A stretch of DNA of 61,038 bases from a virus, in IMG/VR virus record IMGVR_UViG_3300045988_047031, positions 1-61,038 of that record. The stretch is one strand, 5' to 3'. The translations under genes were made by a program, and so were the position numbers. The notes beneath the pieces are model-generated. The model did not search any database. It saw only the letters and a program-made list of their open reading frames with translations, and was not told where the DNA came from. Below are positions 4,919 through 61,038 of the stretch, piece after piece (position 1 is the first letter of the stretch; every line of letters begins with the position of its first letter).

Positions 4919-4920
4919 TC

Positions 4921-6222: not shown

Positions 6223-6508
6223 AAGGCTGCGTAAGGCTTATAGGAGCCGCATATTAGCGACTAAGACTGACCCTGGGTCGGTACAAGGGATACCTGATTT
6301 GATCGTTATATGCGATTCTAAATACGCTCTATTGGAAGTTAAACGCTCTGCCAACGCTTCTAAAAGACCTAATCAAGACTATTATATAGAGAAATTTGGA
6401 CAACATAGTTTTACATCATTCATTTATCCTGAGAATGAAACAGATGTTATATATGAAATGTGTGATTTCTTTGGTCTTGACTTCAATTTATTTCTGAAAG
6501 AAAAGTAG
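6176..6508 (+). CDS. VRR-NUC domain nuclease
   Basis: GIPDLIVICDSKYALLEVKR (D...E-x-K restriction-fold core); typical position after the SNF2 helicase. Confidence 0.7.
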   Translation: MASIPLEKDYQASLLRRLRKAYRSRILATKTDPGSVQGIPDLIVICDSKYALLEVKRSANASKRPNQDYYIEKFGQHSFTSFIYPENETDVIYEMCDFFGLDFNLFLKEK

Positions 6509-6544
6509 TTCTAATTGTAGTAGATATCTTTAAAGGAGCGATGA

Positions 6545-7153
6545 ATGGATTGGATACCACATTGGAACTTGGCTGGGAAACATGCATTCTTATCCCCGTC
6601 AGGTTATTCATGGCTTGGTTATGATGCTGAAAAAATGGCTAAATCCTATGAGAACAAACAGAACGTTGCTCGTGGGACAGCCTTGCATGAGATGGCATCG
6701 CAATTAATTAAGTCTAAAACAGAATTAGCGCCTAAAAAGAAGGCTCTTAACCTGTTTGTCAACGATTGTATTAGGGACGGCATGTCTTCTGAGGTACTTT
6801 TATACTACTCAGACCATTGTTTTGGTACTGCAGACGGTATTAAATGGGACTCAGACCAGCTTGAATTACGTATTTACGACCTAAAAACCGGCGTATCTAA
6901 GCCATCTTTCAAGCAATTAGATATCTATGCCGCTCTATTTTGCTTAGAATATGGGGTAAATCCTAAGAAAATTACCATTATTCAGCGCCTATATCAAGGG
7001 AATGGCTTCCAAGAACAGGTGACTGTCAAGGATAAAGCTCGTGTTGAGGGTGAAAATCCCGGTAATATCGCTTGGATTATGTCGCATATTAAGCAAATGA
7101 GTAAAATATTAGAGGAAAAAGAGGCTGAAATCAGGCCATTTAAGTTCTGGTAG
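6545..7153 (+). CDS. PD-(D/E)XK exonuclease (RecB/Cas4-like, DUF2800-type)
   Basis: GTADGI ... IYDLKTG ... QLDIYA motif series; AAAGGAG RBS 6 nt upstream of ATG 6545. Confidence 0.6.
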   Translation: MDWIPHWNLAGKHAFLSPSGYSWLGYDAEKMAKSYENKQNVARGTALHEMASQLIKSKTELAPKKKALNLFVNDCIRDGMSSEVLLYYSDHCFGTADGIKWDSDQLELRIYDLKTGVSKPSFKQLDIYAALFCLEYGVNPKKITIIQRLYQGNGFQEQVTVKDKARVEGENPGNIAWIMSHIKQMSKILEEKEAEIRPFKFW

Positions 7154-13256: not shown

Positions 13257-13657
13257 GGATGAAGTTTATGACTAGTATCTATGAAGACGTACTCAACTTC
13301 GTCGGGGTGTTACATGATTCCGAACCGGATTCAAATCGTGTAGTTAAGACTCAACTAGGTGTAGCTATTGATGCGGCACTTGGTGTGCTTGTTCAGAATG
13401 GTGTCGGTCATAATGTTAGTGTTATCGCCGAACCTAATTTAACTTGGGCGGAGTTCTTCTACGGTCATATGGATCTGGCTGAAGGAATTAAGGAACGCCT
13501 TAGAAATAATACCTTTGCTAAGAACTATGTTTGTATCTCGGCGTTGATTTCATATGACCCACCACAAGCATCTGTTCTTACCGCATTGAAAGAGGCTCGG
13601 GATGAGAATCTCACTCGCGCTAGATGGGAGGTAGAACTTGTCAAACTTGACATCTGA
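13250..13657 (+). CDS. hypothetical protein (135 aa)
   Basis: ORF overlapping the HNH stop; function unknown (small terminase not excluded). Confidence 0.55.
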   Translation: MVRMKFMTSIYEDVLNFVGVLHDSEPDSNRVVKTQLGVAIDAALGVLVQNGVGHNVSVIAEPNLTWAEFFYGHMDLAEGIKERLRNNTFAKNYVCISALISYDPPQASVLTALKEARDENLTRARWEVELVKLDI

Positions 13658-40950: not shown

Positions 40951-40996
40951 GCGTTGTGTGAGTGAAATCTACAACGCTTATTTTTTTTTATTTTTT
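40951..40996 (+). terminator. intrinsic terminator after the lysis cassette
   Basis: gcgttgt-13 nt-acaacgc followed by a long T tract. Confidence 0.6.
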
Positions 40997-41021
40997 ACAG
41001 CTCTCTATATAGAAAGAGAGG
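40994..41021 (+). promoter_or_regulatory. phage promoter-like element, copy b (tttacagctctctatatagaaagagagg)
   Basis: consensus copy; ATG 41030 is 8 nt after GAGAGG. Confidence 0.6.
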
Positions 41022-41029
41022 TATATGAT

Positions 41030-41377
41030 ATGCAAAAACTTGTTGAAAATTATAATTCTTGTAGGGAGAGATACCTTAACGCACCTACTTTTGGAAATGA
41101 CTTTATATATATTTGTTATTACGATATGTATATTGACGCATGTTCTAAGATATTGGACTGTTTAAATAACCTTAGGGTTGTTTATGATTGTGATCGAGAA
41201 TTGGGTCTCGAAGAAGCAATCCTTAAAGCAAAACTATTGAAATTTAAATGGTTTCATATGGATGGACGTATGTTCAATAAAATAAGAAGACAAATACTTA
41301 TAAAGCAAACCAAAAAGCAGATGCTGGAAGTAGACACCCTTACGATGTTCATAATCAAAGCATATTTGGAGCAATAA
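41030..41377 (+). CDS. hypothetical protein (115 aa)
   Basis: ATG 41030 after GAGAGGTA; the ORF-track N-terminal extension (from 40958) is a translation of the terminator/promoter. Confidence 0.7.
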   Translation: MQKLVENYNSCRERYLNAPTFGNDFIYICYYDMYIDACSKILDCLNNLRVVYDCDRELGLEEAILKAKLLKFKWFHMDGRMFNKIRRQILIKQTKKQMLEVDTLTMFIIKAYLEQ

Positions 41378-41396
41378 ACATTGCTCTTTTTCTTTT
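41369..41396 (+). terminator. intrinsic terminator
   Basis: gagcaa-taaaca-ttgctc plus tttttctttt. Confidence 0.65.
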
Positions 41397-41402
41397 AAAT
41401 TT

Positions 41403-41430
41403 TTTACACGTATCTATATAGAATACTAAT
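41403..41430 (+). promoter_or_regulatory. phage promoter-like element, copy c (tttacacgtatctatatagaatactaat)
   Basis: same TTTACA-N10-TAGAA geometry. Confidence 0.55.
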
Positions 41431-41454
41431 GGATATTTTAAAGGAGGAATTAAT

Positions 41455-41565
41455 ATGCAATATGTTATTGGGACATTGATTGTGTTGTGGATCCTAAGTT
41501 ACGGATTCACTAGTATTTTGAAAGGGATCGGTGGATTTCTATTAAGACTGTTTGGTCGATATTAG
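41455..41565 (+). CDS. micro-ORF, 36-aa hydrophobic peptide
   Basis: AAAGGAGG RBS 7 nt upstream; MQYVIGTLIVLWILSYGFTSILKGIGGFLLRLFGRY; bracketed by promoter element and terminator; below the ORF-track cutoff. Confidence 0.6.
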   Translation: MQYVIGTLIVLWILSYGFTSILKGIGGFLLRLFGRY

Positions 41566-41591
41566 AGATTTCACCAATCTCTTTTCTTTTT
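41564..41591 (+). terminator. intrinsic terminator
   Basis: agagatt-tcacc-aatctct plus tttctttttc. Confidence 0.65.
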
Positions 41592-41597
41592 CAAAAC

Positions 41598-41625
41598 TTT
41601 ACATCTATCTATATAGAATAAAGAA
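41598..41625 (+). promoter_or_regulatory. phage promoter-like element, copy d (tttacatctatctatatagaataaagaa)
   Basis: same geometry. Confidence 0.55.
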
Positions 41626-41639
41626 ATGAGGTAGTTCAA

Positions 41640-41927
41640 ATGAAGAACAAATTATTTATGTTGAAGTTGGAAGATCGCAATACAGTTCGCGATAACTTGG
41701 ACGCAATATTGAGTCGTATCCATGACTATATTGCAGACAAATACTTGGAAGGTGAAGTTGATATTGAAATCACGAATATTACAATCGTGAATTTCGGTAT
41801 TCAGGGGATCGATTTCCGAGCACTGTCTGGTAATCTAGATTTGGTTTATGGCAAACTATTGGAGTCCGGATATCATGCTGAACTATTTAGCGACGAAGAC
41901 ACTACATGGATTAAAGTGAGTGTTTAA
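41640..41927 (+). CDS. hypothetical protein (95 aa)
   Basis: GAGGTAG RBS; cassette bounded by terminators. Confidence 0.7.
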   Translation: MKNKLFMLKLEDRNTVRDNLDAILSRIHDYIADKYLEGEVDIEITNITIVNFGIQGIDFRALSGNLDLVYGKLLESGYHAELFSDEDTTWIKVSV

Positions 41928-41946
41928 TACACTCATTTCTTTTTTC
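41918..41946 (+). terminator. intrinsic terminator
   Basis: gagtgt-ttaat-acactc plus atttcttttttc. Confidence 0.6.
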
Positions 41947-41952
41947 AAAACA

Positions 41953-41980
41953 TTTACAGTTCTCTATATAGAAAGAGAGG
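41953..41980 (+). promoter_or_regulatory. phage promoter-like element, copy e (tttacagttctctatatagaaagagagg)
   Basis: consensus copy; ATG 41989 is 8 nt downstream. Confidence 0.6.
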
Positions 41981-41988
41981 TAGTCGAT

Positions 41989-42072
41989 ATGAACAAAAAG
42001 AATGAAGAAACCAAGGATATGACTTGGTGGCAATTTCTATTGGGTCTATGGTTTTTAGACCTATTTTTCTAA
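41989..42072 (+). CDS. micro-ORF, 27-aa peptide with hydrophobic C terminus
   Basis: MNKKNEETKDMTWWQFLLGLWFLDLFF; consensus promoter/RBS upstream, terminator downstream. Confidence 0.55.
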   Translation: MNKKNEETKDMTWWQFLLGLWFLDLFF

Positions 42073-42074
42073 AC

Positions 42075-42103
42075 GGAGACTACAAAGGTCTCCTATTTTT
42101 TTT
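42075..42103 (+). terminator. intrinsic terminator
   Basis: ggagac-tacaaag-gtctcc plus tattttttttt. Confidence 0.7.
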
Positions 42104-42118
42104 AAGAAAGGATATGTA

Positions 42119-42309
42119 ATGGAACAAACAAGGATACCGGATGCTAAAGAAATGGCAATAAAAAAGGGCTGTATGACGCATATAATGGAAGTAAATATGC
42201 TCTAAATGATAAACAGTTAATTAAATATCTAGAGGACGAACTTGGATATGAAGTAAGCGCCGGATATGAATACAACCTTAGATTATATGGGATTACACTA
42301 AAATGGTAA
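42119..42309 (+). CDS. small gene requiring a -1 frameshift at A_AAA_AAG (42160-42166)
   Basis: the 0-frame ORF (42119-42205) and a start-less 54-codon -1-frame ORF (42148-42309) overlap at the heptamer. The -1 ORF ends right at the next RBS. Fused product is about 63 aa. Confidence 0.5.
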
Positions 42310-42319
42310 AGGAGAATGT

Positions 42320-42634
42320 ATGACAACCAGATGGAAAGAACTAACGACGGTTATTGTCTCGGCCCTGATTTTTGTTACGATCTGCATTGCTCTAATTGAG
42401 ATTAATACAGCTAACAAGATCAATGAGCTGGAAAAAAAACATCAGAGAGAGGTTAAGACTCTAACTGAGGAACGCGACATGTATAAGAAGCGATGGGAAT
42501 TTCGAGATGACGTTGCTACTTATTACTACGATGAATATCTCGATTTGAAGGAAAAATACGAAAATCTTAAACTTGCATTAGGAAAAACGGAGGATGAAGA
42601 AAATGATAAAACTCAAAACAGCAGCGGAAATTAG
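42320..42634 (+). CDS. membrane-anchored coiled-coil protein (104 aa)
   Basis: AAAGGAG RBS; N-terminal TM (VIVSALIFVTICIALI). Confidence 0.7.
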   Translation: MTTRWKELTTVIVSALIFVTICIALIEINTANKINELEKKHQREVKTLTEERDMYKKRWEFRDDVATYYYDEYLDLKEKYENLKLALGKTEDEENDKTQNSSGN

Positions 42635-42971
42635 ACAGATGATTGCGGATAAACGGAGCGCAGTAAGGTCGGGAATTGACTTAACTAAGGTTTATGAAAA
42701 GGTAAACAATAGGTTAGAGAACCTTGAACTCGGCGCAACTAGTATTCTACTTTTAGCAAAATCAATTAGACCTGATGTCAATGTTCCAGATGAAGAATGG
42801 AAAGATTCTTTACAATTCATTTTTGATGAAATCCAAATCAAACTTGAAGATAACGGATATACTGTCCGCCCACATTATGGTTTAGGTTTTGGTAGTACAC
42901 CTCCTCGCATTGGATTGATTATTTACTGGGATCCAAAAGACCTGCCGGATGACGGCGAAAGGGAAGAATAA
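42603..42971 (+). CDS. hypothetical protein (about 122 aa)
   Basis: ACGGAGG RBS 9 nt before ATG 42603 (ATG 42594 also possible). Confidence 0.65.
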   Translation: MIKLKTAAEIRQMIADKRSAVRSGIDLTKVYEKVNNRLENLELGATSILLLAKSIRPDVNVPDEEWKDSLQFIFDEIQIKLEDNGYTVRPHYGLGFGSTPPRIGLIIYWDPKDLPDDGEREE

Positions 42972-42974
42972 ATA

Positions 42975-43002
42975 TTTACAACCCTCCTAATAGAAAGAGA
43001 GG
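42975..43002 (+). promoter_or_regulatory. phage promoter-like element, copy f (tttacaaccctcctaatagaaagagagg)
   Basis: same geometry; ATG 43011 is 8 nt downstream. Confidence 0.55.
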
Positions 43003-43010
43003 ACATTATT

Positions 43011-43187
43011 ATGCGTAAATTTTTAAGATTTGTTGGTTTTCGTTGTCTTGCTGCATACGCTGTTATGGAGGAAGCTTATATTGATAGGCTTGTGAAAAAC
43101 GGTTATGTTGAACAAGATGCTGCGAAACACAACGAACGTCTTGAGGTTACAAGATACGTTCTAACTAAATTGAAGAAAGAGTATTAA
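43011..43187 (+). CDS. hypothetical protein (58 aa)
   Basis: just below the ORF-track cutoff; promoter/RBS element upstream, terminator hairpin overlapping the stop. Confidence 0.6.
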   Translation: MRKFLRFVGFRCLAAYAVMEEAYIDRLVKNGYVEQDAAKHNERLEVTRYVLTKLKKEY

Positions 43188-43210
43188 TACAATACTCTTT
43201 TAATTTTTTA
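43177..43210 (+). terminator. intrinsic terminator
   Basis: 9-bp stem aagagtatt / aatactctt, loop aatac, then tttaatttttt. Confidence 0.6.
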
Positions 43211-43234
43211 CAACTGTCTATATAGAAAGGAAGG
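43207..43234 (+). promoter_or_regulatory. phage promoter-like element, copy g (tttacaactgtctatatagaaaggaagg)
   Basis: same geometry; ATG 43242 is 7 nt downstream. Confidence 0.55.
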
Positions 43235-43241
43235 AAACGTT

Positions 43242-43583
43242 ATGAAACTTTTTAAGAAAAAACACGTTGCTAAAATTGAAGAAACTATCGAGGCTAAACT
43301 CGATGAACTGAATACCCAACTGGCTGAAGTACCAACGGGTAGTGAGGAAGAAGTCAAAATCTTGGACGATATTGATTTTCTTACCAAAACATTGACGGAT
43401 ATTAAAGTCCGCCATATGCAAGGTAAAGAAAAGAAGCTCGAACCACAGGTTAAGGCGGCTATCATCACTACTGTTGGTGGTGCTATTGCTAGTATTGCAG
43501 GTATCCTAATCATCAGGGATTATGAAGCGGAAGACGGTCTCTTCACTTCTAGCGCAAAGAATTTTATTAAGAAGCTGTACTAA
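43242..43583 (+). CDS. hypothetical protein with C-terminal TM (113 aa)
   Basis: ORF after promoter element g; AAIITTVGGAIASIAGILII helix. Confidence 0.7.
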   Translation: MKLFKKKHVAKIEETIEAKLDELNTQLAEVPTGSEEEVKILDDIDFLTKTLTDIKVRHMQGKEKKLEPQVKAAIITTVGGAIASIAGILIIRDYEAEDGLFTSSAKNFIKKLY

Positions 43584-43609
43584 TGTACACTTCTTTCTTT
43601 TTTTTTTTT
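43576..43609 (+). terminator. short hairpin plus tacacttctttc-T12 element
   Basis: tgtac-taat-gtaca; 24 nt (43586-43609) are identical to 45609-45632. Confidence 0.45.
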
Positions 43610-43617
43610 GGTATAAT
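43609..43617 (+). promoter_or_regulatory. extended -10 box TGgTATAAT
   Basis: exact TGnTATAAT directly after the T tract, 19 nt before ATG 43636. Confidence 0.35.
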
Positions 43618-43635
43618 ATAAAAGGAGCAATATTT

Positions 43636-44142
43636 ATGGAGTATGTTGATAAGACAGAGCACCCAACGATTTACAGCCTAATGGAGTATGATGTAGGTTT
43701 TAGAAAGCTGTTTTATCCTTATATCTTTGGGATTATGGCGGATAACCATCTTGAATGTAATGATTATGATTTTGAGATGTTCAAGGTCATCTTTATTTCA
43801 ACTATGGTTATTATCCAAAATTATTATACTTCTGACCTTATCAAGAAGTATGAGGAAGATATCAGAGGTTTGTATTTCGCATATTTCAAGGTTCGAACAA
43901 TAACCAATGTTGGGCAGGACGGTATCGATAAGATTACGACTCGTATTCGTACTAAGATTACAGACTTTGATTTATCACCAACTGATGCAGACTTTGAAAA
44001 TTGTATCGAAATGGTAAAAACAGATATGCCTCGAGTCAATAACTACGAAACATGGGATGTTATTGTATACAAAATGGAATATTTCCGTGATTGCTACTAT
44101 AACATAATTCGTATATTGCATCAAGCTAAAGGAGGGAATTGA
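43636..44142 (+). CDS. hypothetical protein (168 aa)
   Basis: AAAGGAG RBS before ATG 43636; the ORF-track extension from 43522 overlaps the previous gene and terminator. Confidence 0.7.
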   Translation: MEYVDKTEHPTIYSLMEYDVGFRKLFYPYIFGIMADNHLECNDYDFEMFKVIFISTMVIIQNYYTSDLIKKYEEDIRGLYFAYFKVRTITNVGQDGIDKITTRIRTKITDFDLSPTDADFENCIEMVKTDMPRVNNYETWDVIVYKMEYFRDCYYNIIRILHQAKGGN

Positions 44143-44462
44143 TGTCAGAAAGTACGGCACGTATCGCCCAAACCAAGAACCGTGAGTTGCGTCTTAAAAA
44201 GATGAACGACCTATCTTTTATTCATTTCATCACAACCGAAGCTGTTGTTTTGCTATATTTAACACAATATATGATGGAAACAGCTGAAGAATGGGTTGAC
44301 TGGTGTACTGAGGAGTATGGCGGTAATTGGTATTGTGGCCATAACTTTGCCCAACTAGGCGCAGACCATAAATCTTATATTGAAGAGTCAATCAAAAACG
44401 CAAATAAAATTCTTGATGAATTCATTATCGAAGGAGGATATGAACATGAAATTCAACCTTAA
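44142..44462 (+). CDS. hypothetical protein (106 aa)
   Basis: AAAGGAGGG RBS; ATG overlaps the previous stop. Confidence 0.7.
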   Translation: MSESTARIAQTKNRELRLKKMNDLSFIHFITTEAVVLLYLTQYMMETAEEWVDWCTEEYGGNWYCGHNFAQLGADHKSYIEESIKNANKILDEFIIEGGYEHEIQP

Positions 44463-44889
44463 AATCAAAAACCAAAATAAACTATTGTTGATTGTTGCTG
44501 CTATTGCTACTATTGGTGCCATTGCGTGTGGTGTATGGTATTTTATCCCTCACCCACCGCATGCAGATATTGTAACCTTGGAAGATGCTAAAGATTTCAA
44601 GAAAGCCGAAGACTGGTATAAGGTCACACGCTGGGAAGTTGTATCTGTTGATATGTCAGCTTATGATAAAAGTAAAGACGAATACGGCTTCTTCGGAAAG
44701 GTAACGCTTAAAGGGGCAGGAGACCCTGTATATGCCGCGCTTACCAAGAAAGATGGCGGCGAAGACTATTCTATAGAGGAAGGCGATGTTGTATATGCTA
44801 AAACCTCTAACCTCGAAAAGAATTTCCTATTCGGAAACATGGTTACAGGTGATATCTTATATATTGAAAAAGGAGGAGCGAAGAAATGA
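44446..44889 (+). CDS. N-terminally anchored/secreted protein (147 aa)
   Basis: GAAGGAGG 8 nt before ATG 44446; TM/signal LLLIVAAIATIGAIACGVWYF. Confidence 0.65.
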   Translation: MKFNLKIKNQNKLLLIVAAIATIGAIACGVWYFIPHPPHADIVTLEDAKDFKKAEDWYKVTRWEVVSVDMSAYDKSKDEYGFFGKVTLKGAGDPVYAALTKKDGGEDYSIEEGDVVYAKTSNLEKNFLFGNMVTGDILYIEKGGAKK

Positions 44890-45173
44890 GTAACGAAATT
44901 CTATTATTCCCTAACAATGTAATTCTGGTCAATGCTTTATACCATACAAGTATCGGCTACAACAGACAAGACGATACTGGTATCGCGCTTAATCTCACGC
45001 CTATCAGCGCTAATGACCATATCGAAGATGATTTGGATATCATGGAAGATATTGCAGAATATCTATTCCAACTATATTTGAAAGATCCTAAGATTGCAGC
45101 TAAAATCAAGCGACCACGTTATTACTATAACGACATGTATAAACGCTGGATTATCACATTTGAGTTTAAATAA
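44886..45173 (+). CDS. hypothetical protein (95 aa)
   Basis: ATGA overlap with the upstream gene; GGAGGAG RBS. Confidence 0.7.
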   Translation: MSNEILLFPNNVILVNALYHTSIGYNRQDDTGIALNLTPISANDHIEDDLDIMEDIAEYLFQLYLKDPKIAAKIKRPRYYYNDMYKRWIITFEFK

Positions 45174-45178
45174 AAATT

Positions 45179-45206
45179 TTTACATACCACTATATAGAAC
45201 AAATAA
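45179..45206 (+). promoter_or_regulatory. phage promoter-like element, copy h (tttacataccactatatagaacaaataa)
   Basis: same geometry. Confidence 0.55.
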
Positions 45207-45222
45207 AAAGGAGGACATTAAT

Positions 45223-45606
45223 ATGTCAAAAGTAAAACAATTGAAAGAAGCAGAAACTACTGAAGTTATTGAAAATGCAGAGGCTGTTGCCGGTAGCGTA
45301 TTTGAAAACTTGTCAGATGAAGAGAAGGCTAAGCTTCTTGCGATGGTTGACCAACAACCAGTTGTTGAAGAGAAACAAGGAAAAGCTAAACAAGCTTGGA
45401 ATTGGGTCAAATCTAACAAATGGAAAATTGGTGGAGCTATTGCAGGAGCTGCCCTTATCGGATTCCTTGGCAAGAAAGCGTACGATGCTGGTATGCCTGC
45501 AGAATTCGATGCTGATGTAATTGACGGCGACTATGAAATTGCTGAACTTGAAGAGTATGAAAATACTCCTGAAGTTGTTGAAGAGACGGAAGAGGTTGTA
45601 GAGTAA
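45223..45606 (+). CDS. acidic protein with central TM helix (127 aa)
   Basis: AAAAGGAGG RBS before ATG 45223; WKIGGAIAGAALIGFLG helix. Confidence 0.7.
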   Translation: MSKVKQLKEAETTEVIENAEAVAGSVFENLSDEEKAKLLAMVDQQPVVEEKQGKAKQAWNWVKSNKWKIGGAIAGAALIGFLGKKAYDAGMPAEFDADVIDGDYEIAELEEYENTPEVVEETEEVVE

Positions 45607-45632
45607 TCTACACTTCTTTCTTTTTTTTTTTT
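45597..45632 (+). terminator. short hairpin plus tacacttctttc-T12 element
   Basis: tgtaga-gtaa-tctaca; 24 nt identical to 43586-43609. Confidence 0.45.
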
Positions 45633-45645
45633 GAAGGAGAACTTG

Positions 45646-45888
45646 ATGAAGAAAACATATTTGGATAAATACCCATACGAATTGAAAAACATTGATGATA
45701 CGCATTGGTCTATTCTGATTGACCCACTTGACCACCAAGCCGCTACCGACTTGGTTCTGAATTTTGGGCGTACAGATAACCGCGTTTCTATTGAAGGCAT
45801 GGCACTTAAAGTCAAGAGCCACAAGACGGTTCTTTCTAAATACGAAGATGGGATGCAAGCTATTCTTATCTCTGCCTATATTCTTTAA
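45646..45888 (+). CDS. hypothetical protein (80 aa)
   Basis: GAAGGAG RBS before ATG 45646. Confidence 0.65.
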   Translation: MKKTYLDKYPYELKNIDDTHWSILIDPLDHQAATDLVLNFGRTDNRVSIEGMALKVKSHKTVLSKYEDGMQAILISAYIL

Positions 45889-45892
45889 AATT

Positions 45893-45920
45893 TTTACCAT
45901 GCACTATATAGAAAGGAGAC
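45893..45920 (+). promoter_or_regulatory. phage promoter-like element, copy i (tttaccatgcactatatagaaaggagac)
   Basis: same geometry, but not followed by an ORF. Confidence 0.5.
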
Positions 45921-50220: not shown

Positions 50221-50231
50221 AGGAGTATTAT

Positions 50232-53200
50232 ATGACGGACAGAAAACCGGATTTCTTCAATATTACAGTTGAGGAATTATCTGGCCCAAATCGTAAAGCC
50301 GATGCCGTTATTTCCGCTGATTTCACATATCTAGATAACCAAGGAGGAGACGTTAAGGATATTGTTGTAAAAGGTGGTAGCTTTTATGCTATGTGGACTG
50401 GAGAGAACTGGTCAATGGAAAAGAACGATGTTGTTCGTGTTGTTGACCAATATATCTCACACAAGTTCCACGAGCTTAAAGCGCAAGGTTATGAACGAGT
50501 ATCTGTTAAATTTATGCAAAACGCAGGCTCAGGTCTTATGCGTAATTTCGTCAAGTATTGTGAAGACGCACCCGAGTCCATGCAGGTATTTAATAGTAAA
50601 ATCTTATTCCAAAACCACAACGTTGTCAGAGAAGATTATTCTACTTTCCAACTACCTTATACACCAACTCCTCAACCAACTCCTGCATTTGACGAGCTTT
50701 CTTCTGTCTTATATGCGCCAGACCAACTCGATAAAATCTTGTGGTGTTTGGGTGCCTTATTTACAGGAGAGATTGTTAATATTGAGAAATTCTTATTCTT
50801 ATATGGCCCAGCGGGAACCGGTAAAGGAACAATAATTAAAATCATCGAGATGCTGCTTGGGCAATATATCGGTGGTATCGACTTGAAACAACTTACGAGC
50901 GGTTCCGAGTATGCAACAGGGACTCTACAAGAGCTACCTTTGTTGATTGACTCGGATACAGACTTGAGTCGTATTAAGAACGATACCCCATTGCTTAAGG
51001 TTACATCTCATGAAGAAGTATTTGTACGTAAGTTATATCAAAGACCATATCCCGTGACGTTTAAAGGTCTTATCATCACTGCATCAAACCAACGTGCACA
51101 ATTCCGTGATTCAGACTCTGGTATTGTCAGACGTCTACTTAAGGCGGTACCAACAGGTCATCTTATCGCTGGCCCAAGGTATAAAGAACTGATGAATAAC
51201 ATCCAGTTTGAGTTAGCTGGAATTGCACAAAAATCTATTGATGTATTTTCTCGTCTAGGAGCATTCCATTACGCCAACGACGTCGATATTGAGATGCTTG
51301 AATACGGAGACTCTATATTTGAGTTTGTCCGTGAGAATGTGTTGATGATGAAAGACGACCCAACCTTATCTGAAGTAGAACTACTCTATAAGGCTATGCT
51401 CGAAGATAGGGGCTGGGAGACTAACGGATATAAGAACCGTCTGCGACTAGGCTTACAGCGATTTTTCGAAACATATACCAAAGACACTAAAGATAGCGAA
51501 GGAAATCGAAAACGTGATTGGTATAGAGGTTTCAAATACGAAGAGGCATTTCCTGAAACAAAAGCTAAACCTGTTAGTGAGGATAAACCTAAGATTGACT
51601 TGACAATGGGTCGAGAAACATCTAGGTTTGATATTGAGGGTCGTGATTGGCCTGCTCAATATACTAACAAGGACGGGAACCCTCTGAAGAAGTGGGACTC
51701 GGTAACAACGACGTTAAAAGATATCGACCCCACTCAATTACACTTTGTCCGTGTTCCAACCGAACATATTATAATTGACTTCGATGCTAAGAACGAGAAC
51801 GGCGAGAAAGACCTTGCTAAGAACCTCGAACTGGCATCCGGATATCCTCCAACTTATACAGAAGTATCTAAGTCTGGTGGTGGCGTCCATCTACATTATT
51901 GGTATGATGGCGACCCTACTAAGCTAGCTACACGTATTTCTGACGACATTGAAATTAAGGTGTTTAATGGCGGGGCTTCCTTGCGTAGAAAACTCATATC
52001 TGCCAACGACCTACCAGTTGCTCATATTTCAAGCGGTCTACCACTCAAGGAGGAGAAGAAGTCAATGTATAAAGATGTTGAACACATTATGTGGACAGAG
52101 AAAAAACTTCTTGATTTCATTGACGCATGTCTCCGAAAAGAACACCATGGGGCAACGGCGCCTGAAGTATCATTTATAGCAAAGGTACTAGATGATGCAT
52201 ATGAAGCTGGTGTTATTTATGATTTGCGACATAAACAACAAGAAGTATTACGGTTTGCACTCAAGTCAACCAACCAAGCGCAACAATGTTTGAAGATGGT
52301 TTCTGAGATGCATTTCCATAGAGTTCCTGATGATGAGAACGAATCTTATTCTGAAGGCCTCATTCTACCTGATGAAGATATCGTATTCTTTGACTCGGAA
52401 GTATTCTGCAACCTGTATATGTTAGGTTGGAAGAAATACGGTTTGGACGTCCCCGAATCAATCTACAAAGGTCTCGAAGATTGTACTACTCTAACTGAGA
52501 TTGAGACCATCTTGGTTAATGAGTGGTGGGCAACACACGAGAAAGAAATCGGTATTGAAATCAACCCTACACCTAAACGCGTATGTCATTTATTTGACAC
52601 ATATCCTATGGTCGGCTTCAACAACCTTGGATATGATAACCATATTGCTTATGGTCGTATGCAGGGTGATGATGAAATGGAATGTTATAAACGTTCTCAA
52701 GGCATTATCGAGAAGCGTGATAAACGTGCTAAAATCTGGGCGGCTAACGATATCTCATATGCGGATATCTACGAGTTCCTAGACACTAAGATGTCATTGA
52801 AGAAATGGCAGATTAAACTAGGGCTCCGCCACGATGAGTTCGAATATGACTGGACTAAACCTCTCCCTGAGCATGCATGGGGTCGTTGTGCGGCATATAT
52901 GCTTAACGACGTAACTTCAGAGGAAGAACTGTTCAAATCTAAAGACGGACAAGATGCATGGGCCGCTCGTAAAGTCTTGGCTGAAATCAACGGTCTTTCA
53001 CCTAATGTTAAGACTCAGACGCAAGCTGAGAAATTCTTATTTGGAGATGACCCGAACCCTCAAGATAAGTTCAACTGGTATGATTTGTCTAAGGAATTCC
53101 CAGGTTATACATTTGATAAATTCAAGAAGAAATCTGAATATCTTGGAGAAGACCCATCTGAAGGTGGTTATGTCCATGCCGAACCTGGTGTATATAAGAA

Positions 53201-54350
53201 CGTTATCGTATTGGATATCGCGTCTATGCATCCACACAGCCTGATTGCCATGAATTACTTTGGCCCGTATACACCGAAGTTTGCGGCCCTGGTTAAATGT
53301 CGTATGGCGATTAAGCACGGTAAGATTGATGAAGCATCTCATGCCTTTGATGAGGTAGACCCTGAACTAGCAGATAAACTCCGTCCATATTTGGAAGGTG
53401 GTTCTGTCAAAGGTTTGGCTCATGCGCTTAAGATTATCATAAATATTGTATATGGTATGACTTCCGCACCATGGCCTAATAAATTTAAAGACCCTCGTAA
53501 TGTCGATAACTGTATCGCAAAACGTGGAGCTTTATTTATGATTATGCTGAAGAAGGAAGTTCAAGAACGCGGCTATCAAGTAGCACATATTAAGACGGAC
53601 TCAATTAAGATTATCAACGGCGATCAATCTATTATTGACTACTGTATGAAACGTGCGAATGATTTCAAATACGAGTTCGAACACGAGCATACATATTCCC
53701 GTATGGCCTTACTCAACCGCGCTACCGTTATTGCCGAAATCGGTTGGCCTGAAAAAGAGAAAGGTAATTGGGAAGCGATTGGTGCTCAATTCGGTAAGAA
53801 GACCAATCCGTATGTTTACAAGACTCTGTTAAGTCAAGAAGAAGTAAACGAGAAAGATTTCTTTATTACTAAGGAAGTTAAGACCGCTATTTATCTTGAC
53901 GACCAATATGTTGGTAAGAACGCTCAAATCTACGCTTCTCTCACAGGTCGTGAAATCTCTAGAACTCAACCCAGCAATGTAGCTCAGATGATTCAATCGA
54001 GATGGATTAAACCGAACTATATGCTTAAACGCGAGTCTGCAGGTCTAGACGCATTCCAACTTGAAGAAGCTAAGAAACATAAGATTGCCAATGAACTAGG
54101 CATCGATATCTATGAAGTTAAACAAATTATCGATAACGGGTTCCCTGATACTATTGTCGACAAGAATGTATCTGTAACAGGTACTTCTGGGTATAAGTGG
54201 GAACTAGCTACTCGATATAAAGGCTTCGAAGATATTGATATGACATATTACCATACTCTAGTTAAGGACGCTGTTAAAGACGTCTATGCTGTTGGTGATG
54301 GTGATATTATTTTCGGCGGAACTAAATTTGCCAAATATGCAAAGGAGTAA
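50232..54350 (+). CDS. fusion replicase: SF3 helicase/NTPase - AEP primase-polymerase - family B DNA polymerase
   Basis: Walker A GPAGTGKGT (nt 50805-), Walker B LLIDSD, motif C ITASN. AEP DxD IIIDFDAK plus SGGGVHLHY. PolB ExoI FFDSE, ExoII NLGYD, ExoIII YMLND, motif A LDIASMHPHS, motif B KIIINIVYG, motif C IKTDS. AGAGGAG RBS before ATG 50232. Confidence 0.8.
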   Translation: MTDRKPDFFNITVEELSGPNRKADAVISADFTYLDNQGGDVKDIVVKGGSFYAMWTGENWSMEKNDVVRVVDQYISHKFHELKAQGYERVSVKFMQNAGSGLMRNFVKYCEDAPESMQVFNSKILFQNHNVVREDYSTFQLPYTPTPQPTPAFDELSSVLYAPDQLDKILWCLGALFTGEIVNIEKFLFLYGPAGTGKGTIIKIIEMLLGQYIGGIDLKQLTSGSEYATGTLQELPLLIDSDTDLSRIKNDTPLLKVTSHEEVFVRKLYQRPYPVTFKGLIITASNQRAQFRDSDSGIVRRLLKAVPTGHLIAGPRYKELMNNIQFELAGIAQKSIDVFSRLGAFHYANDVDIEMLEYGDSIFEFVRENVLMMKDDPTLSEVELLYKAMLEDRGWETNGYKNRLRLGLQRFFETYTKDTKDSEGNRKRDWYRGFKYEEAFPETKAKPVSEDKPKIDLTMGRETSRFDIEGRDWPAQYTNKDGNPLKKWDSVTTTLKDIDPTQLHFVRVPTEHIIIDFDAKNENGEKDLAKNLELASGYPPTYTEVSKSGGGVHLHYWYDGDPTKLATRISDDIEIKVFNGGASLRRKLISANDLPVAHISSGLPLKEEKKSMYKDVEHIMWTEKKLLDFIDACLRKEHHGATAPEVSFIAKVLDDAYEAGVIYDLRHKQQEVLRFALKSTNQAQQCLKMVSEMHFHRVPDDENESYSEGLILPDEDIVFFDSEVFCNLYMLGWKKYGLDVPESIYKGLEDCTTLTEIETILVNEWWATHEKEIGIEINPTPKRVCHLFDTYPMVGFNNLGYDNHIAYGRMQGDDEMECYKRSQGIIEKRDKRAKIWAANDISYADIYEFLDTKMSLKKWQIKLGLRHDEFEYDWTKPLPEHAWGRCAAYMLNDVTSEEELFKSKDGQDAWAARKVLAEINGLSPNVKTQTQAEKFLFGDDPNPQDKFNWYDLSKEFPGYTFDKFKKKSEYLGEDPSEGGYVHAEPGVYKNVIVLDIASMHPHSLIAMNYFGPYTPKFAALVKCRMAIKHGKIDEASHAFDEVDPELADKLRPYLEGGSVKGLAHALKIIINIVYGMTSAPWPNKFKDPRNVDNCIAKRGALFMIMLKKEVQERGYQVAHIKTDSIKIINGDQSIIDYCMKRANDFKYEFEHEHTYSRMALLNRATVIAEIGWPEKEKGNWEAIGAQFGKKTNPYVYKTLLSQEEVNEKDFFITKEVKTAIYLDDQYVGKNAQIYASLTGREISRTQPSNVAQMIQSRWIKPNYMLKRESAGLDAFQLEEAKKHKIANELGIDIYEVKQIIDNGFPDTIVDKNVSVTGTSGYKWELATRYKGFEDIDMTYYHTLVKDAVKDVYAVGDGDIIFGGTKFAKYAKE

Positions 54351-54716: not shown

Positions 54717-55274
54717 ATGTTGTATTTAATAGACTCTACTGTACAAAGTTCAAATCGTGTCATGTTTAAGGCGGTTGATTTTTTTGAGCGATATGGCGTT
54801 GAATATAAGATACTATCCACCTATAAGAAAACTCGAATGGGTGGTGGTGAATACACACCTAAACTTCCTCGTGAGCTGGCGGCTAAGATTGTGCGATATT
54901 TCGATTATAACATTAAGGGTATCTGCAAGCTACCAAACTCCTCATATGTTCGAGCCATGCATAAGATATCGCCTCAAGCTAAACGGGATTTGAAGTCTGG
55001 ACGTATTTACGATATGACCTGCTCACAGTTTATTGACTGGATTGCAGAGAATCCATGTATGTTAAAAATCACTGTTCTATATGATGATAAACGAGATATT
55101 ATCATATCGCATTTCAAAGAAGAGGACTTGCGCGTGTTTGTCCCTAAGGAATATCGTTCGGTTAGACGTAACCAAATACAATATACTGTCCTTAGTGAAC
55201 TCGGTCTGGCTTCACCTCTAGAAGAAGACCAACCTGGCGTAAAGACGCGCAAAAAATTACCGTCCTCTATATAG
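54717..55274 (+). CDS. Spx/ArsC-family-like protein lacking the CXXC motif
   Basis: N terminus MLYLIDSTVQSSNR..AVDFFERYGVEY versus Spx [27 protein letters not shown]. C terminus WIAENPCMLKITVLYDDKRDIIISHFKEEDLRVFVPKEYRS versus Spx [39 protein letters not shown]. Confidence 0.6.
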   Translation: MLYLIDSTVQSSNRVMFKAVDFFERYGVEYKILSTYKKTRMGGGEYTPKLPRELAAKIVRYFDYNIKGICKLPNSSYVRAMHKISPQAKRDLKSGRIYDMTCSQFIDWIAENPCMLKITVLYDDKRDIIISHFKEEDLRVFVPKEYRSVRRNQIQYTVLSELGLASPLEEDQPGVKTRKKLPSSI

Positions 55275-55283
55275 AAAGAGAGG
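55256..55283 (+). promoter_or_regulatory. phage promoter-like element, copy j (attaccgtcctctatatagaaagagagg)
   Basis: overlaps the 3' end and stop codon of the Spx-like gene; ATG 55292 is 8 nt downstream. Confidence 0.55.
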
Positions 55284-55291
55284 TATTAATT

Positions 55292-55438
55292 ATGGACAAA
55301 TTATCAAAAGGTTTTTCTGTTGCTATCTTGGGGGCATACGCTGTTATTGGCGTAACGCTTGCTTATGATATCTATGACAGAAGCGAATTGAAAGATAAGG
55401 TCGATGATTTTATCAAAAAGCTAAAGAAGGCTGAGTAA
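55292..55438 (+). CDS. micro-ORF, 48-aa TM peptide
   Basis: MDKLSKGFSVAILGAYAVIGVTLAYDIYDRSELKDKVDDFIKKLKKAE; consensus promoter/RBS; its 3' end plus terminator are duplicated at 60598-60636. Confidence 0.6.
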   Translation: MDKLSKGFSVAILGAYAVIGVTLAYDIYDRSELKDKVDDFIKKLKKAE

Positions 55439-55934: not shown

Positions 55935-57365
55935 ATGAAAAAACAAACTACACTTAAAATTGCTGCCATGGGTATCGCTCTCTTTGGTTCTGCTGTTGTT
56001 ACGGAGTCTGCATTTGCTGATGTGACAAAAGCCGAAGGGTCTACCGAACTTATTGCTACCGATCCTGCGGTGACTATCAGTAAAAATGAAGAGGACTCCA
56101 TTTGGTCGGATGTCAACGTAAACATCAAGACCGATATTCCTGATGAAGTTCCTATTAACGAAGGCGATAAGATGACTTTCAATATCCCAGAGGAGCTTAA
56201 TCTCGAAACCAGCTACGATTTCCCTGTATATAATGAAACAGGAGAAACTGAAGTTGGTACTGCTGATGTCAAGGCTAATGAACGTACTGTAACTACAACG
56301 TTCAATAATTATTTTACCGAGCATCCGCTGGATAAATCTATCAGCTTGAATTTTACCACTAAGATCAACCGTGAAGTTATGCAGGAAAACACCAAGCGTA
56401 ATGTTTCATTCAATGGTACTATTGTGGAAATCAACGCAGGTTCTAAAGGTACAATCAACCCTAATGAGGAATTGTACAAATACGGTTACCAAGACCGTGA
56501 CGATAAAGATCTTATCCACTGGGTTGCTCGTTTGAATTACAAGCGCCAAACAATGGAAGATGTAAACATCTCTGATACATGGTCTGATGATCAAGACTAT
56601 GTTGAGGGTAGCCTTATTTACAGCTACGTTAAAGATGTGGATCCATGGGTATATGACTCACCTGCTACTCAAGCTCGGGCGAATACTAAATTCAACAAGA
56701 ACGGTTTTACCACACACATCGATAAGATTGAAAACAAAATCTTGATGGTTGAGTATAAGACACGCTTGCGTACACCAGTTCTTTATAACCCAACTAACTT
56801 ATTCACAGCTAGCTGGAACGGAGGGTTTGTATCACACGAAGCTGAAACTAAACTTTATGATGGTAATGGTAAAGCAACTGGTAAATCCCGTCCAAAATGG
56901 GACAAACCAAATGATGCGCCTAAGTATGAGCTTCCTGAGTTTGAAGGAGGCGTTGTTCCTAACGATCCTCCAGTTTACAAAAACCCATCTATTGACTTAG
57001 CCGATATCCCATTGATGCCACCAGCGCCTACATTGGATTTGCCAGAATGGAAAGGCGGAACTGTACCATTTGACGCTCCTAAACACGACAAACCAGAATT
57101 CAACGGTGGTGTTATTCCTAATGATGCACCTATCGTAGACCTTCCAGAGTTGGTTATTCCTGAAATGCCAGCTCCTAAGGAAGATAAACCTAAAGTTGAA
57201 ATCAAAGAAAAACCAGTTAAACCAGCTAAGCAACAACCTCTTGGCCGACCTACCTTACCAGCAACAGGTAGTGATGAAACTACATATCTTGCCATTGGCG
57301 GTGTTGTAATTGGTGTACTCGCATTGGGCATGGCTGGAATGAAAAAGAAAGATGAGGAAAAATAA
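55935..57365 (+). CDS. LPXTG-anchored surface adhesin (collagen-binding/MSCRAMM-like A domain plus proline-rich repeats)
   Basis: signal peptide MKKQTTLKIAAMGIALFGSAVVTESAFA; GDKMTFNIPEELNLETSYDFPVYN...VTTTFNNYF resembles the Collagen_bind domain core; three PE(F/W)xGG(V/T)(V/I)P(N/F)D(A/P)P repeats; LPATG plus TM plus KKKDEEK. Confidence 0.8.
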   Translation: MKKQTTLKIAAMGIALFGSAVVTESAFADVTKAEGSTELIATDPAVTISKNEEDSIWSDVNVNIKTDIPDEVPINEGDKMTFNIPEELNLETSYDFPVYNETGETEVGTADVKANERTVTTTFNNYFTEHPLDKSISLNFTTKINREVMQENTKRNVSFNGTIVEINAGSKGTINPNEELYKYGYQDRDDKDLIHWVARLNYKRQTMEDVNISDTWSDDQDYVEGSLIYSYVKDVDPWVYDSPATQARANTKFNKNGFTTHIDKIENKILMVEYKTRLRTPVLYNPTNLFTASWNGGFVSHEAETKLYDGNGKATGKSRPKWDKPNDAPKYELPEFEGGVVPNDPPVYKNPSIDLADIPLMPPAPTLDLPEWKGGTVPFDAPKHDKPEFNGGVIPNDAPIVDLPELVIPEMPAPKEDKPKVEIKEKPVKPAKQQPLGRPTLPATGSDETTYLAIGGVVIGVLALGMAGMKKKDEEK

Positions 57366-57619
57366 TGAAACGCGGAAAGAATAATAAAGCTGTTTTAATA
57401 AACCAAAGTATTAAATGCATGGAAGCTTATGCCGACAGAAGACAACCCGCTAATCCAATTGGTATCTTTTGGAGAAACAAAGCCGAAAAATTCAAATCGC
57501 TCAACCCATCAAAACTTAAAAAGGCATATCTAAAAGCGTTTATTAGGGCTGTAGTGGTAAGATTGCCTGAGGAGAATGTGTATTACATGGAGGAATTAAA
57601 TGAAAGTAAACCCAACTAA
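57365..57619 (+). CDS. basic hypothetical protein (84 aa)
   Basis: ATG overlaps the preceding stop (TAATG). Confidence 0.6.
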   Translation: MKRGKNNKAVLINQSIKCMEAYADRRQPANPIGIFWRNKAEKFKSLNPSKLKKAYLKAFIRAVVVRLPEENVYYMEELNESKPN

Positions 57620-58178
57620 TATGTTAAAGGCTCATGATGAGCTTCTCGCCATTTTTGAAAAGAAGAATTCCGACTACGGAAATTCGTTCGAAGAGTCCTT
57701 GGAAAAACACGGTCTGATCGCCGCTATCGTGCGTATGGAAGATAAGATGGGACGATTAAATAGTCTTACTAAAGCTGGGTCGAAGCAGAAAGTGTCTGAT
57801 GAATCTTTGGTTGACACGCTCAAAGACCTGTCTAACTATGCACTCATGACCGCGGTTTGGCTGGAAGAGGAAAAGGCGTTTCATGATAGACCAGCACAAC
57901 CACCCCTTAGCGAATGGGACGAACTAATTCCTAATGGCTCTAATCTCAAATCAATTATTGTAGATTTGATGAAGGACTTGCCTGATATATTTACGGTTAA
58001 ACATCTCACTCTTGATGACTGCGAGAAACCTAAATCTGTATTTTTTGTAGTAAAGGATGAAGACAAATTCCGTAAGTGGTCTATTTCTTATATTGATAAG
58101 CATCCTGGGTATGATGCTACGTATCGTTCGCTTAACGAAAAACTCACCCAAGTCCAAGTCTTCTCATACACGGAGTAG
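57600..58178 (+). CDS. DUF1599 / MazG-like all-alpha nucleotide-pyrophosphohydrolase-fold protein (tentative)
   Basis: LAIFEKKNSDYGNSFEES...IVRMEDKMGRL pattern; GGAGGA RBS. Confidence 0.45.
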   Translation: MKVNPTNMLKAHDELLAIFEKKNSDYGNSFEESLEKHGLIAAIVRMEDKMGRLNSLTKAGSKQKVSDESLVDTLKDLSNYALMTAVWLEEEKAFHDRPAQPPLSEWDELIPNGSNLKSIIVDLMKDLPDIFTVKHLTLDDCEKPKSVFFVVKDEDKFRKWSISYIDKHPGYDATYRSLNEKLTQVQVFSYTE

Positions 58179-58750: not shown

Positions 58751-58775
58751 TTTATACTATTCTCTTCAATTTTTT
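58743..58775 (+). terminator. hairpin terminator
   Basis: 9-bp stem gagaatagt / actattctc, loop ttat, then ttcaattttt. Confidence 0.55.
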
Positions 58776-58800
58776 ACATATCTCTCTATAGAAAGAGAGG
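58773..58800 (+). promoter_or_regulatory. phage promoter-like element, copy l (tttacatatctctctatagaaagagagg)
   Basis: same geometry; ATG 58809 is 8 nt downstream. Confidence 0.6.
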
Positions 58801-58808
58801 TATACATT

Positions 58809-59180
58809 ATGATGAATTTTGAATACAAAGGAAAAATGATTAATGTGGAGGCTGCATCAATCTTCTATAAGATTGCTATGCTTACGAAATACGAAACTAT
58901 GGCTATTCTGAAAGACAAATATAAAGAGTCTTGGACAGAAAAGGCAGAGAGTCTGTTTCATCAAGAATACGATCATATGGAGGCATTTATTGAGCAACCA
59001 GATAAATCACAATTCCTGAAAGTCATTTATTATGGTGAAATGCTAAAAATGGAAATTGGAATGACCCCTGAGGAGGAACAGCATTTGGCTTCGTTTAGCG
59101 GTGAAATATATTCTAAACTCGGAGACGAGAAGCAGAATGTGCTTGCTGAACTAACAAGACAATTGATGGAAATCGACTAA
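58809..59180 (+). CDS. hypothetical protein (123 aa)
   Basis: ATG 58809 after GAGAGGTA; the ORF-track extension from 58737 translates the terminator/promoter. Confidence 0.7.
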   Translation: MMNFEYKGKMINVEAASIFYKIAMLTKYETMAILKDKYKESWTEKAESLFHQEYDHMEAFIEQPDKSQFLKVIYYGEMLKMEIGMTPEEEQHLASFSGEIYSKLGDEKQNVLAELTRQLMEID

Positions 59181-59941: not shown

Positions 59942-60232
59942 ATGGATGAATTTCAATTAACGGATTTTCCTAAATTATATTCAACTAATAAGAAAGAAGT
60001 TGAACGATTCACTGATCAGGTCTACAATTATGCTAAATACTACAGCTATATTACTGTTCGAGACTTCGTTCGTCTTTGGTTTAATCTAAAGGAGAACCAG
60101 TCTAATAGCTACGTCCAGTCAGCTTCAGTTCAATGGTGTGTTGAATACAAGGATTTACCTAAGCGCCGTGACATTAAAAAGGACAAGACCAAAGGCTGGT
60201 ATTTGGAAATGCCGGCTGCATATATGTTCTAA
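59942..60232 (+). CDS. hypothetical protein (96 aa)
   Basis: AAGGAGTGG RBS before ATG 59942. Confidence 0.7.
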   Translation: MDEFQLTDFPKLYSTNKKEVERFTDQVYNYAKYYSYITVRDFVRLWFNLKENQSNSYVQSASVQWCVEYKDLPKRRDIKKDKTKGWYLEMPAAYMF

Positions 60233-60234
60233 TA

Positions 60235-60262
60235 TTTACACGTGTCTATATAGAAAGAGAGG
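60235..60262 (+). promoter_or_regulatory. phage promoter-like element, copy m (tttacacgtgtctatatagaaagagagg)
   Basis: consensus copy; ATG 60271 is 8 nt downstream. Confidence 0.6.
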
Positions 60263-60270
60263 TAAATATC

Positions 60271-60612
60271 ATGAAAGAAACATATAAATATGATGGTTGG
60301 TATCCTGGAGACGATAACGATGAAACACGATATGCGTTATTTATAGATGAGGTAACTAAACTAGCTTTGATAAAACCAATGTCTAAATCTGAACTTAAGG
60401 ATTTCGAAATGTTTAACTATTGCGAACCTGCAACATGGGACGCGTATGATAAACAAATGAAAGACGTAAATAAAGGTAAGACATTAGGATTATTATTGTT
60501 GGGAACAGTTGTCCCATTTACAGTAATTGCTATCTATCTAGGTCTCAAGAAAACTGGCCATATTAATAAGTTTAAAATGTGGTGTAAATCTAAATTCAAG
60601 AAGGCTGAGTAA
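60271..60612 (+). CDS. hypothetical protein with C-terminal TM (113 aa)
   Basis: N terminus is paralogous to 58529-58750; the C-terminal ...KKAE plus terminator are identical to the 55292 cassette. Confidence 0.7.
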   Translation: MKETYKYDGWYPGDDNDETRYALFIDEVTKLALIKPMSKSELKDFEMFNYCEPATWDAYDKQMKDVNKGKTLGLLLLGTVVPFTVIAIYLGLKKTGHINKFKMWCKSKFKKAE

Positions 60613-60983: not shown

Positions 60984-61038
60984 AACACACCATACCGCTT
61001 CTTAAGAGTTTTTCGTGAGAACAAGTATGGCGAGATTA
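60984..61038. repeat. terminal direct repeat, copy 2
   Basis: identical to nt 1-55. Confidence 0.95.

Follow-up and report, generated by a model that had tools for sequence, protein, structure and literature searches.

A GP55-type helicase-primase-polymerase encoded as a single chain by an uncultivated ~61-kb phage of the 1706-like lineage

Does one uninterrupted gene of an uncultivated phage encode helicase, primase and DNA polymerase with proofreading in a single chain and, if it does, is such a protein new? The question is raised by a gene at positions 50232–54350 of a 61,038-nucleotide stretch of viral DNA (IMG/VR record IMGVR_UViG_3300045988_047031, positions 1 to 61,038), the whole of which we call the window; the genes and protein features whose coordinates are given below, apart from the ORFs named with two short DNA repeats, lie on its + strand. 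An earlier inspection of the bare letters (the sequence-only reading) had proposed that the 1,372-amino acid (aa) product carries, in this order, a superfamily 3 (SF3) helicase, an archaeo-eukaryotic primase (AEP) plus a DNA polymerase of family B (PolB) with its exonuclease, that no helicase-primase-PolB chain was known to have been characterised, and that the protein may be a self-contained minimal replisome. Our analysis bears out the single chain, its domain content and its domain order, but the novelty does not hold, because the protein is a new member of the GP55-type family, which was described in 2016 (PMC4889955) and biochemically characterised in 2025 (PMC12205980).

The gene consists of 1,372 codons and a terminal stop with no internal stop codon; across the same interval the two alternative forward frames are interrupted by 52 and 172 stops. 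A ribosome-binding site, GAGGAG (50221–50226), can be read 5 nucleotides 5' of the ATG at 50232; the alternative mechanical start of the open reading frame (ORF) is a TTG at 50205, but the gene upstream runs as far as 50220 and thus includes that TTG, which leaves the ATG as the sensible start of the replicase. Over its whole length the product matches PHROG 4210 (1454 bits), a profile of 1,304 positions with the annotation 'DNA polymerase'. The product's closest deposited relative is orf55 (GP55) of Lactococcus phage 1706 (Fremauxvirus), with 50.6% identity at 99% coverage (tblastn, E 0), and a pairwise alignment of the two proteins gives 53% identity in 1,309 columns. By domain the identity is 48% (helicase), 58% (PriS-like primase), 51% (the accessory domain aHD) and 56% (PolB), and the two chains share the four-part order SF3 helicase, PriS-like AEP, aHD and PolB with exonuclease. 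All seven GP55 residues that are essential by mutagenesis are kept: K189, D509, Y655, F667, D712, E714 and D949 of GP55 are the identical K198, D518, Y663, F675, D721, E723 and D995 of the window protein, and K198, D518, D721, E723 and D995 are invariant across the family, as judged from an alignment of 30 sequences (members down to 45% identity) to which all statements about invariant or conserved residues below refer. Gene order upstream of the replicase is shared with phage 1706, homologues of whose orf43, orf51 and orf53 precede it.

Kazlauskas et al. (2016) recognised phage 1706 gp55 as an SF3-AEP-PolB fusion and as one of two known helicase-primase-polymerase single chains; the other, Pas55 of Actinoplanes phage phiAsp2, likewise has an SF3 helicase but, as described, joins it to a primase of the DnaG type and a polymerase of family A, where the window protein has an AEP and a PolB (PMC4889955). 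Zhang et al. (2025) purified GP55, a 1,317-aa protein that they term a 'four-in-one replicase' and for which they count >1,000 homologues in nr (PMC12205980). It has DNA polymerase and 3'-5' exonuclease activities, a helicase that depends on UTP or dTTP, not ATP, and drives strand displacement, an RNA primase that prefers GTP at 5'-CCAAC-3', and a previously undescribed domain of four helices (aHD), which lies between PriS-like domain and PolB and is essential; it dimerises via its helicase domain, replicates single-stranded M13 DNA completely de novo, and copies a 7.2-kb single-stranded DNA (ssDNA) circle within 0.2 min (PMC12205980).

The differences between the window protein and GP55 are minor. 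The former exceeds the latter by 55 aa. Between its exonuclease motifs I and II lies a 31-aa insertion (aa 740–770; 52449–52541) which is common to a subclade of the homologues and is not present in GP55, and a variable insertion of ~60 aa in the C-terminal region (aa 1249–1309) is larger in it than in GP55. AlphaFold2 (AF2) predicts two helices in the first of these, at model residues 53–60 and 67–79, with a predicted local distance difference test score (pLDDT) of about 86–97. Both insertions are confidently modelled and conserved within the subclade, and they might allow a partner from host or phage to dock (for example the ssDNA-binding protein or a clamp) or alter the coupling of exonuclease, primase and polymerase; it is nevertheless unlikely that they confer a property absent in GP55.

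The N-terminal region (aa 1–136; 50232–50639), in which F8, D43, G48, W55 and W60 are invariant, probably corresponds to the domain found ahead of the SF3 core in primase-helicases of the D5/P4 type; positions 383–720 of the 855-position phrog_1156 'DNA primase' profile align with aa 45–339. The helicase core follows (aa 137–340; 50640–51251) and contains the invariant motifs Walker A GPAGTGKGT (aa 192–200, including K198), Walker B LLIDSD (aa 237–242) and motif C/sensor 1 ITASN (aa 282–286, including N286), as well as an invariant arginine finger, R300/R301. In a Pfam search with the whole protein, DUF5906 is matched by aa 190–300 (E 6e-8), a match that exceeds its gathering score; the C-terminal domain of TIGR01613 ('phage/plasmid primase, P4 family') gives E 1.6e-16, under its curated cutoff, and PHROG primase-helicase families match the helicase segment at about 1e-19. 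When this segment was searched alone against the sequences of the PDB it found 7ola 'DNA primase' (E 4.8e-5) and African swine fever virus (ASFV) C962R (E 0.06), and an hmmsearch of the same sequences with the family profile returned no helicase. The AAA+-like core thus combines Walker A, Walker B, the sensor 1 asparagine and the arginine finger with profile matches of the D5/P4 type; the helicase assignment rests on such profile and sequence matches, the fold searches having covered the primase and polymerase modules. The remainder of this part (aa 341–447; 51252–51572), delimited by alignment with GP55 and the published domain limits of that protein, comprises the C-terminal region of the helicase and a linker; its equivalent in GP55 lies within the 'helicase domain' (aa 1–439), which mediates dimerisation (PMC12205980).

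The proteins of the D5/P4 gp-alpha type (vaccinia D5, ASFV C962R, PDB 7ola) have the same SF3-type helicase core, likewise fused to an AEP, but their domain order is the reverse of that in the window protein, as the sequence-only reading had pointed out, and they have neither a polymerase module nor an aHD. Among viral fusions, 94% have the primase at the N-terminus (PMC4889955).

The PriS-like AEP catalytic domain occupies aa 448–612 (51573–52067). Its motif I, IIIDFDAK (aa 513–520), supplies D516 and D518, and its motif II, SGGGVHLHY (aa 548–556), reads S548-G549-x-G551-x-H553-x-H555; all seven of these residues are invariant. An AF2 model of aa 440–700, built from a 41-sequence alignment, has a mean pLDDT of 87.6 and consists of a beta-rich core followed by four helices. 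When it was compared with the PDB by Foldseek, the top 10 matches were exclusively the primase-polymerases (prim-pols) of plasmid pRN1 (ORF904) or phage NrS-1 (E 2e-5 to 5e-4, probability ≥0.98), and the match at rank 11 had an E value of 0.37, so that an AEP catalytic fold accompanies the motif I DxD and the motif II sGxGxH. The invariant E574, in the segment DIEIKV, is by its position a candidate for the acidic residue of motif III; the Pfam Prim-Pol alignment runs over aa 509–575 against profile positions 55–123, and E574 lies where it ends.

The four helices that come after the AEP domain in the predicted model (aa 623–635, 642–658, 666–677 and 683–692, in a block with pLDDT 80–93) correspond to the aHD of GP55, an accessory domain which here extends over aa ~620–696 (52089–52319). 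The sequence-only reading, right about its three modules, had missed this fourth element. In GP55, whose aHD has its helices arranged as two pairs, the domain is essential for priming, and mutation of Y655 and F667 abolishes priming (PMC12205980); their counterparts Y663 and F675 are present in ≥90% of the family. The pRN1 and NrS-1 enzymes are thus the closest structural matches of the AEP catalytic domain, but they prime by means of a helix-bundle domain to which the aHD of GP55-type enzymes is unrelated, and in them a single AEP active site both primes and extends, whereas in the GP55 type PolB takes over extension.

The PolB module begins with its 3'-5' exonuclease subdomain (aa ~697–930; 52320–53021), with the invariant motifs ExoI FFDSE (aa 719–723, D721 and E723), ExoII NLGYD (aa 798–802) and ExoIII YMLND (aa 889–893); phrog_1252 'DNA polymerase' matches aa 686–944 with E 8e-31. 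The palm, fingers, thumb and C-terminal region follow (aa ~931–1372; 53022–54347) and include the invariant motifs A, LDIASMHPHS (aa 994–1003, D995), B, KIIINIVYG (aa 1067–1075), and C, IKTDS (aa 1120–1124, D1123), together with a KxY-like K1197. In motif C, as in that of GP55, a lysine replaces the first aspartate of the usual DTD. E. coli Pol II is matched with E 1.8e-5 by the single sequence, 4.7e-6 by the family profile and 4e-10 by an NCBIfam model. An AF2 model of aa 690–1372 (pLDDT 90.1, predicted template modelling score 0.81) has 243 Foldseek matches in the PDB at E≤1e-3, the best being the 9N/KOD/Tgo family B polymerases (1.7e-13), and the best 50 of the 243 are all primer-extending family B enzymes (Thermococcus/Pyrococcus PolB, Pol alpha and the ASFV polymerase). 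ExoI–III, motif A (DxxSxxPS), motif B (KxxxNxxYG), motif C (xTDS) and a PolB fold therefore occur together in this module. All 11 motif strings named in the sequence-only reading, from Walker A to motif C of the polymerase, are found exactly once in the translation, and their key residues all sit on invariant columns.

Each module having been supported by tests independent of the others, the SF3, AEP and PolB assignments and their order are correct. The window protein is very probably a functional GP55 orthologue and the replicative enzyme of a 1706-like siphophage, its enzymatic properties being inferred throughout from homology with GP55. Several observations weigh against this interpretation. 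The Prim-Pol (PF09250) match misses its threshold (E 0.078; 13.9 bits, compared with a gathering score of 22.8), and the whole-protein Pfam search returned no PolB family (DNA_pol_B or DNA_pol_B_exo) even at E≤1. On Pfam alone, where DUF5906 was the one family to pass, the AEP and PolB assignments would on their face fail, as the sequence-only reading had looked to profile searches to bear them out; the fold searches and the other sequence tests recovered both. Because Pfam on its own is weak in this way, the modules were tested one by one. The hmmsearch of PDB sequences with the family profile recovered PolBs and no AEP. The TM-scores in the fold searches with the primase and polymerase models are modest (0.3–0.43), since multidomain models do not superpose rigidly. 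At 53% identity, the UTP/dTTP dependence, the priming site and the oligomeric state may differ from those of GP55. Finally, the replicase is the core of replication but probably not the whole apparatus in vivo, because the genome also encodes an ssDNA-binding/annealing protein (4427–4918; PF24083, E 2.4e-25, and phrog_4787), a second, SF2-like helicase (4921–6222; phrog_62, E 2e-52) and a PD-(D/E)XK exonuclease (6545–7153; phrog_3953, E 4e-60). The three genes make up a recombination-type module (4427–7153). The idea of a self-contained replisome has itself already been published as a model of GP55 action (PMC12205980).

If the window protein works as GP55 does, its N-terminal SF3 helicase (Walker A K198) would unwind the duplex, driven by UTP or dTTP, mediate dimerisation and bring about strand displacement. 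The AEP (D516/D518, H553) and the aHD (Y663, F675) would make short RNA primers on the single-stranded template, starting with GTP at sites such as 5'-CCAAC-3'; PolB (D995, D1123) would extend these primers, and its 3'-5' exonuclease (D721, E723) would proofread. Hand-off of the primer may be possible in trans between the subunits of a dimer, and the dimer may therefore act as a compact two-subunit replisome.

The fusion could be real and one of its modules catalytically dead; the AEP, for example, could be a structural bridge, with priming left to the host primase. The sub-threshold Prim-Pol match would fit such an arrangement, and so would the putative motif III residue, a glutamate (E574) and not the usual aspartate, although its assignment is by position. 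The motif I DxD and the motif II histidines are invariant, however, Y663 and F675 of the aHD are retained as described above, and GP55 is an active primase with the same motifs, including the DIEIKV segment, all of which makes a dead module very unlikely.

Whether the enzyme might serve repair, translesion synthesis or anti-defence instead of replication was considered as well. Many stand-alone PrimPols serve damage tolerance, and the recombination module described above is separate from the replicase gene. On the other hand, a scan of 30 ORFs near the gene and in the early region revealed no further DNA polymerase or primase, the replicase gene belongs to the core of the lineage as a whole and is a signature of it, and GP55 needs no more than 0.2 min to replicate a 7.2-kb ssDNA circle (PMC12205980); an accessory role is for these reasons highly improbable. 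A clamp, a ligase or a classical ssDNA-binding protein was likewise not recognised among the 30 ORFs.

A protein-primed or primer-independent PolB of the phi29 or piPolB kind, to which the AEP would be irrelevant for initiation, is brought to mind by the KTDS (not DTDS) of motif C and by the published alignment of the GP55 PolB motifs with phi29 polymerase (PMC12205980). It is scarcely credible in the face of the fold search, in which the best matches are RNA- or DNA-primed PolBs and no phi29-type enzyme is among the best 50 of the 243, of the best sequence matches, which are to E. coli Pol II, and of the finding that de novo synthesis by GP55 requires the primase domain and nucleoside triphosphates (PMC12205980). 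Nor do the ends of the genome carry inverted terminal repeats; they share an exact 55-nucleotide direct repeat (1–55 and 60984–61038), which is most simply explained as overlap in an assembly that is circular or circularly permuted, and the window is therefore a phage genome in full, with 60,983 unique bases (~61 kb).

That end overlap, together with the metagenome-style assembly, is also what might favour an artefact in which two or three adjacent genes were joined because a stop was missed, the frame was shifted or the contig is chimeric, but a misassembled or frameshifted junction is excluded for practical purposes, because the same uninterrupted architecture recurs in two independent metagenome assemblies, in ≥120 database clusters and in 252 deposited phage genomes; moreover, GP55, which shares it, was cloned and purified, and the junctions at about 51.6 and 52.3 kb are continuous and align with GP55 without gaps. 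In the assembly collection the exact window protein sequence is absent, and a 95%-identical protein (P0001) was used in its place; it is an uninterrupted 1,372-aa ORF with the same neighbour genes in both assemblies.

The clusters contain proteins of 1,248–1,414 aa that cover 88–100% of the query, and in the 252 phage genomes, where the match covers ≥80% of it, the gene is mostly annotated 'DNA primase/polymerase'. These annotations include actinobacteriophage proteins (Arthrobacter, Gordonia, Streptomyces BI cluster, Curtobacterium and Rhodococcus phages) that are full-length homologues with 35–39% identity at 85–99% coverage, although in some of them the alignment lacks its last ~150 residues, ending near aa 1223–1229. 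These phages infect high-GC Actinobacteria, are of one lineage with the window and have a YonO-like putative RNA polymerase in common with it; our literature searches found no biochemical characterisation of these homologues.

It had been suggested that related phages might carry split versions of the gene. None was found within the family among deposited phages, and the only partial matches there are distant stand-alone PolBs of Enterococcus and Listeria phages and of Lactococcus phage P087. The nearest approach to a split arrangement is in the Enterococcus phage PMBT2 (Efquatrovirus), whose gp23 (763 aa), encoded by a separate gene, is a stand-alone PolB homologous to the whole PolB module (hhalign probability 99%, E 5e-18, 24% identity). 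As it aligns through the C-terminus, the last ~170 residues of the window protein belong to the polymerase module. A small PMBT2 'DNA polymerase/primase' encoded 5.5 kb away, gp35, aligns with the AEP in the stretch from DxD to SGxHLHY, with an hhalign probability of 2.9% and thus without statistical support. A search of 1.84 billion representative sequences with the primase module gave 394 matches at E≤1e-3. In the best 150 of these, 116 proteins are 1,202–1,520 aa long and have the module at about residues 430–760, and the other 34 (<1,200 aa) look like contig-end fragments, since their lengths vary continuously.

Replication of the genome was also considered from the side of the DNA. Nearly all genes are on the + strand. 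GC skew is positive throughout the window, with no switch that would mark an origin, and there is no iteron array near the replicase gene. CCAAC, the GP55 priming site, occurs 69 and 71 times on the two strands (~1 per 0.9 kb), compared with 36 and 54 copies expected from base composition, an excess that is suggestive at most since this expectation takes in base composition only and is not a proper null model. At 1970–2011, between the end of one ORF (1945) and the start of the next (2146), the 11-nucleotide unit TATTATTACGA is repeated 3.8 times in tandem; it could be an iteron-like or regulatory element.

Transcription in this phage may also have a component of its own. The 985-aa protein encoded at 8680–11637 matches phrog_4291 'RNA-dependent RNA polymerase' (1037 bits) and, weakly, a Pfam RNA-dependent RNA polymerase family, has helix-turn-helix (HTH) domains at both ends and carries the metal-binding motif of two-barrel RNA polymerases, GADFDGDT, at aa 578–585; by these features it is likely a YonO-like single-subunit RNA polymerase. 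Its homologues occur in 250 deposited records, mostly as 'hypothetical' or 'HTH DNA-binding protein', with a host breakdown that parallels that of the replicase, and the YonO-like gene is already regarded as a signature gene of the lineage (bioRxiv 10.1101/842583). A repeated promoter-like motif, TTTACA-N6-CTATATAGAAAG-AGAGGT-N6-8-ATG, stands directly 5' of small early-region genes in a strand-specific manner (at 40975–45915, 55240–55300, 58754–58817 and 60216–60279). Its core, CTATATAGAA, is present in nine copies, all on the + strand, compared with 0.32 expected, and there is one copy of the variant CTCTATAGAA. The motif may act as a promoter from which the RNA polymerase of the phage itself transcribes, as the 6-nucleotide spacing is unfit for a sigma-70 -35/-10 pair; no copy is present in the 22-kb stretch of phage 1706 that was examined.

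Three further observations concern other genes. The gene at 55935–57365, 1.6 kb downstream of the replicase, encodes a 476-aa protein with Big_8, Collagen_bind and an LPXTG cell-wall anchor, by its domains an MSCRAMM-like surface adhesin; the 95%-identical relatives have a counterpart of 497 aa in the same position. The gene may be a moron whose product changes the surface of the host, and an adhesin with an LPXTG anchor points to a Gram-positive host. The product of 57600–58178 contains DUF1599 ('nucleotide modification associated domain 1'), a hint that bases in the DNA of this phage may be modified. Within the 538-aa ORF at 13638–15254, a 59-nucleotide direct repeat with 81% identity (14625–14683 and 14952–15010, 327 nucleotides apart) implies an internal duplication in the encoded protein.

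As a discovery the protein carries little weight, the architecture, the domain order and the idea of a compact replisome having all been published. Its value is modest and lies in its being a divergent natural variant (53% identical to GP55) of a biotechnologically interesting type of enzyme, one able to synthesise DNA de novo, free of any supplied primer, while proofreading and displacing strands. Engineering or structural studies could be guided by the map of conservation across the family, with its invariant residues and its two sites of variable insertion. By its replicase, this uncultivated phage of ~61 kb can also be placed in the 1706-like lineage, which spans hosts among both the Firmicutes and the Actinobacteria.

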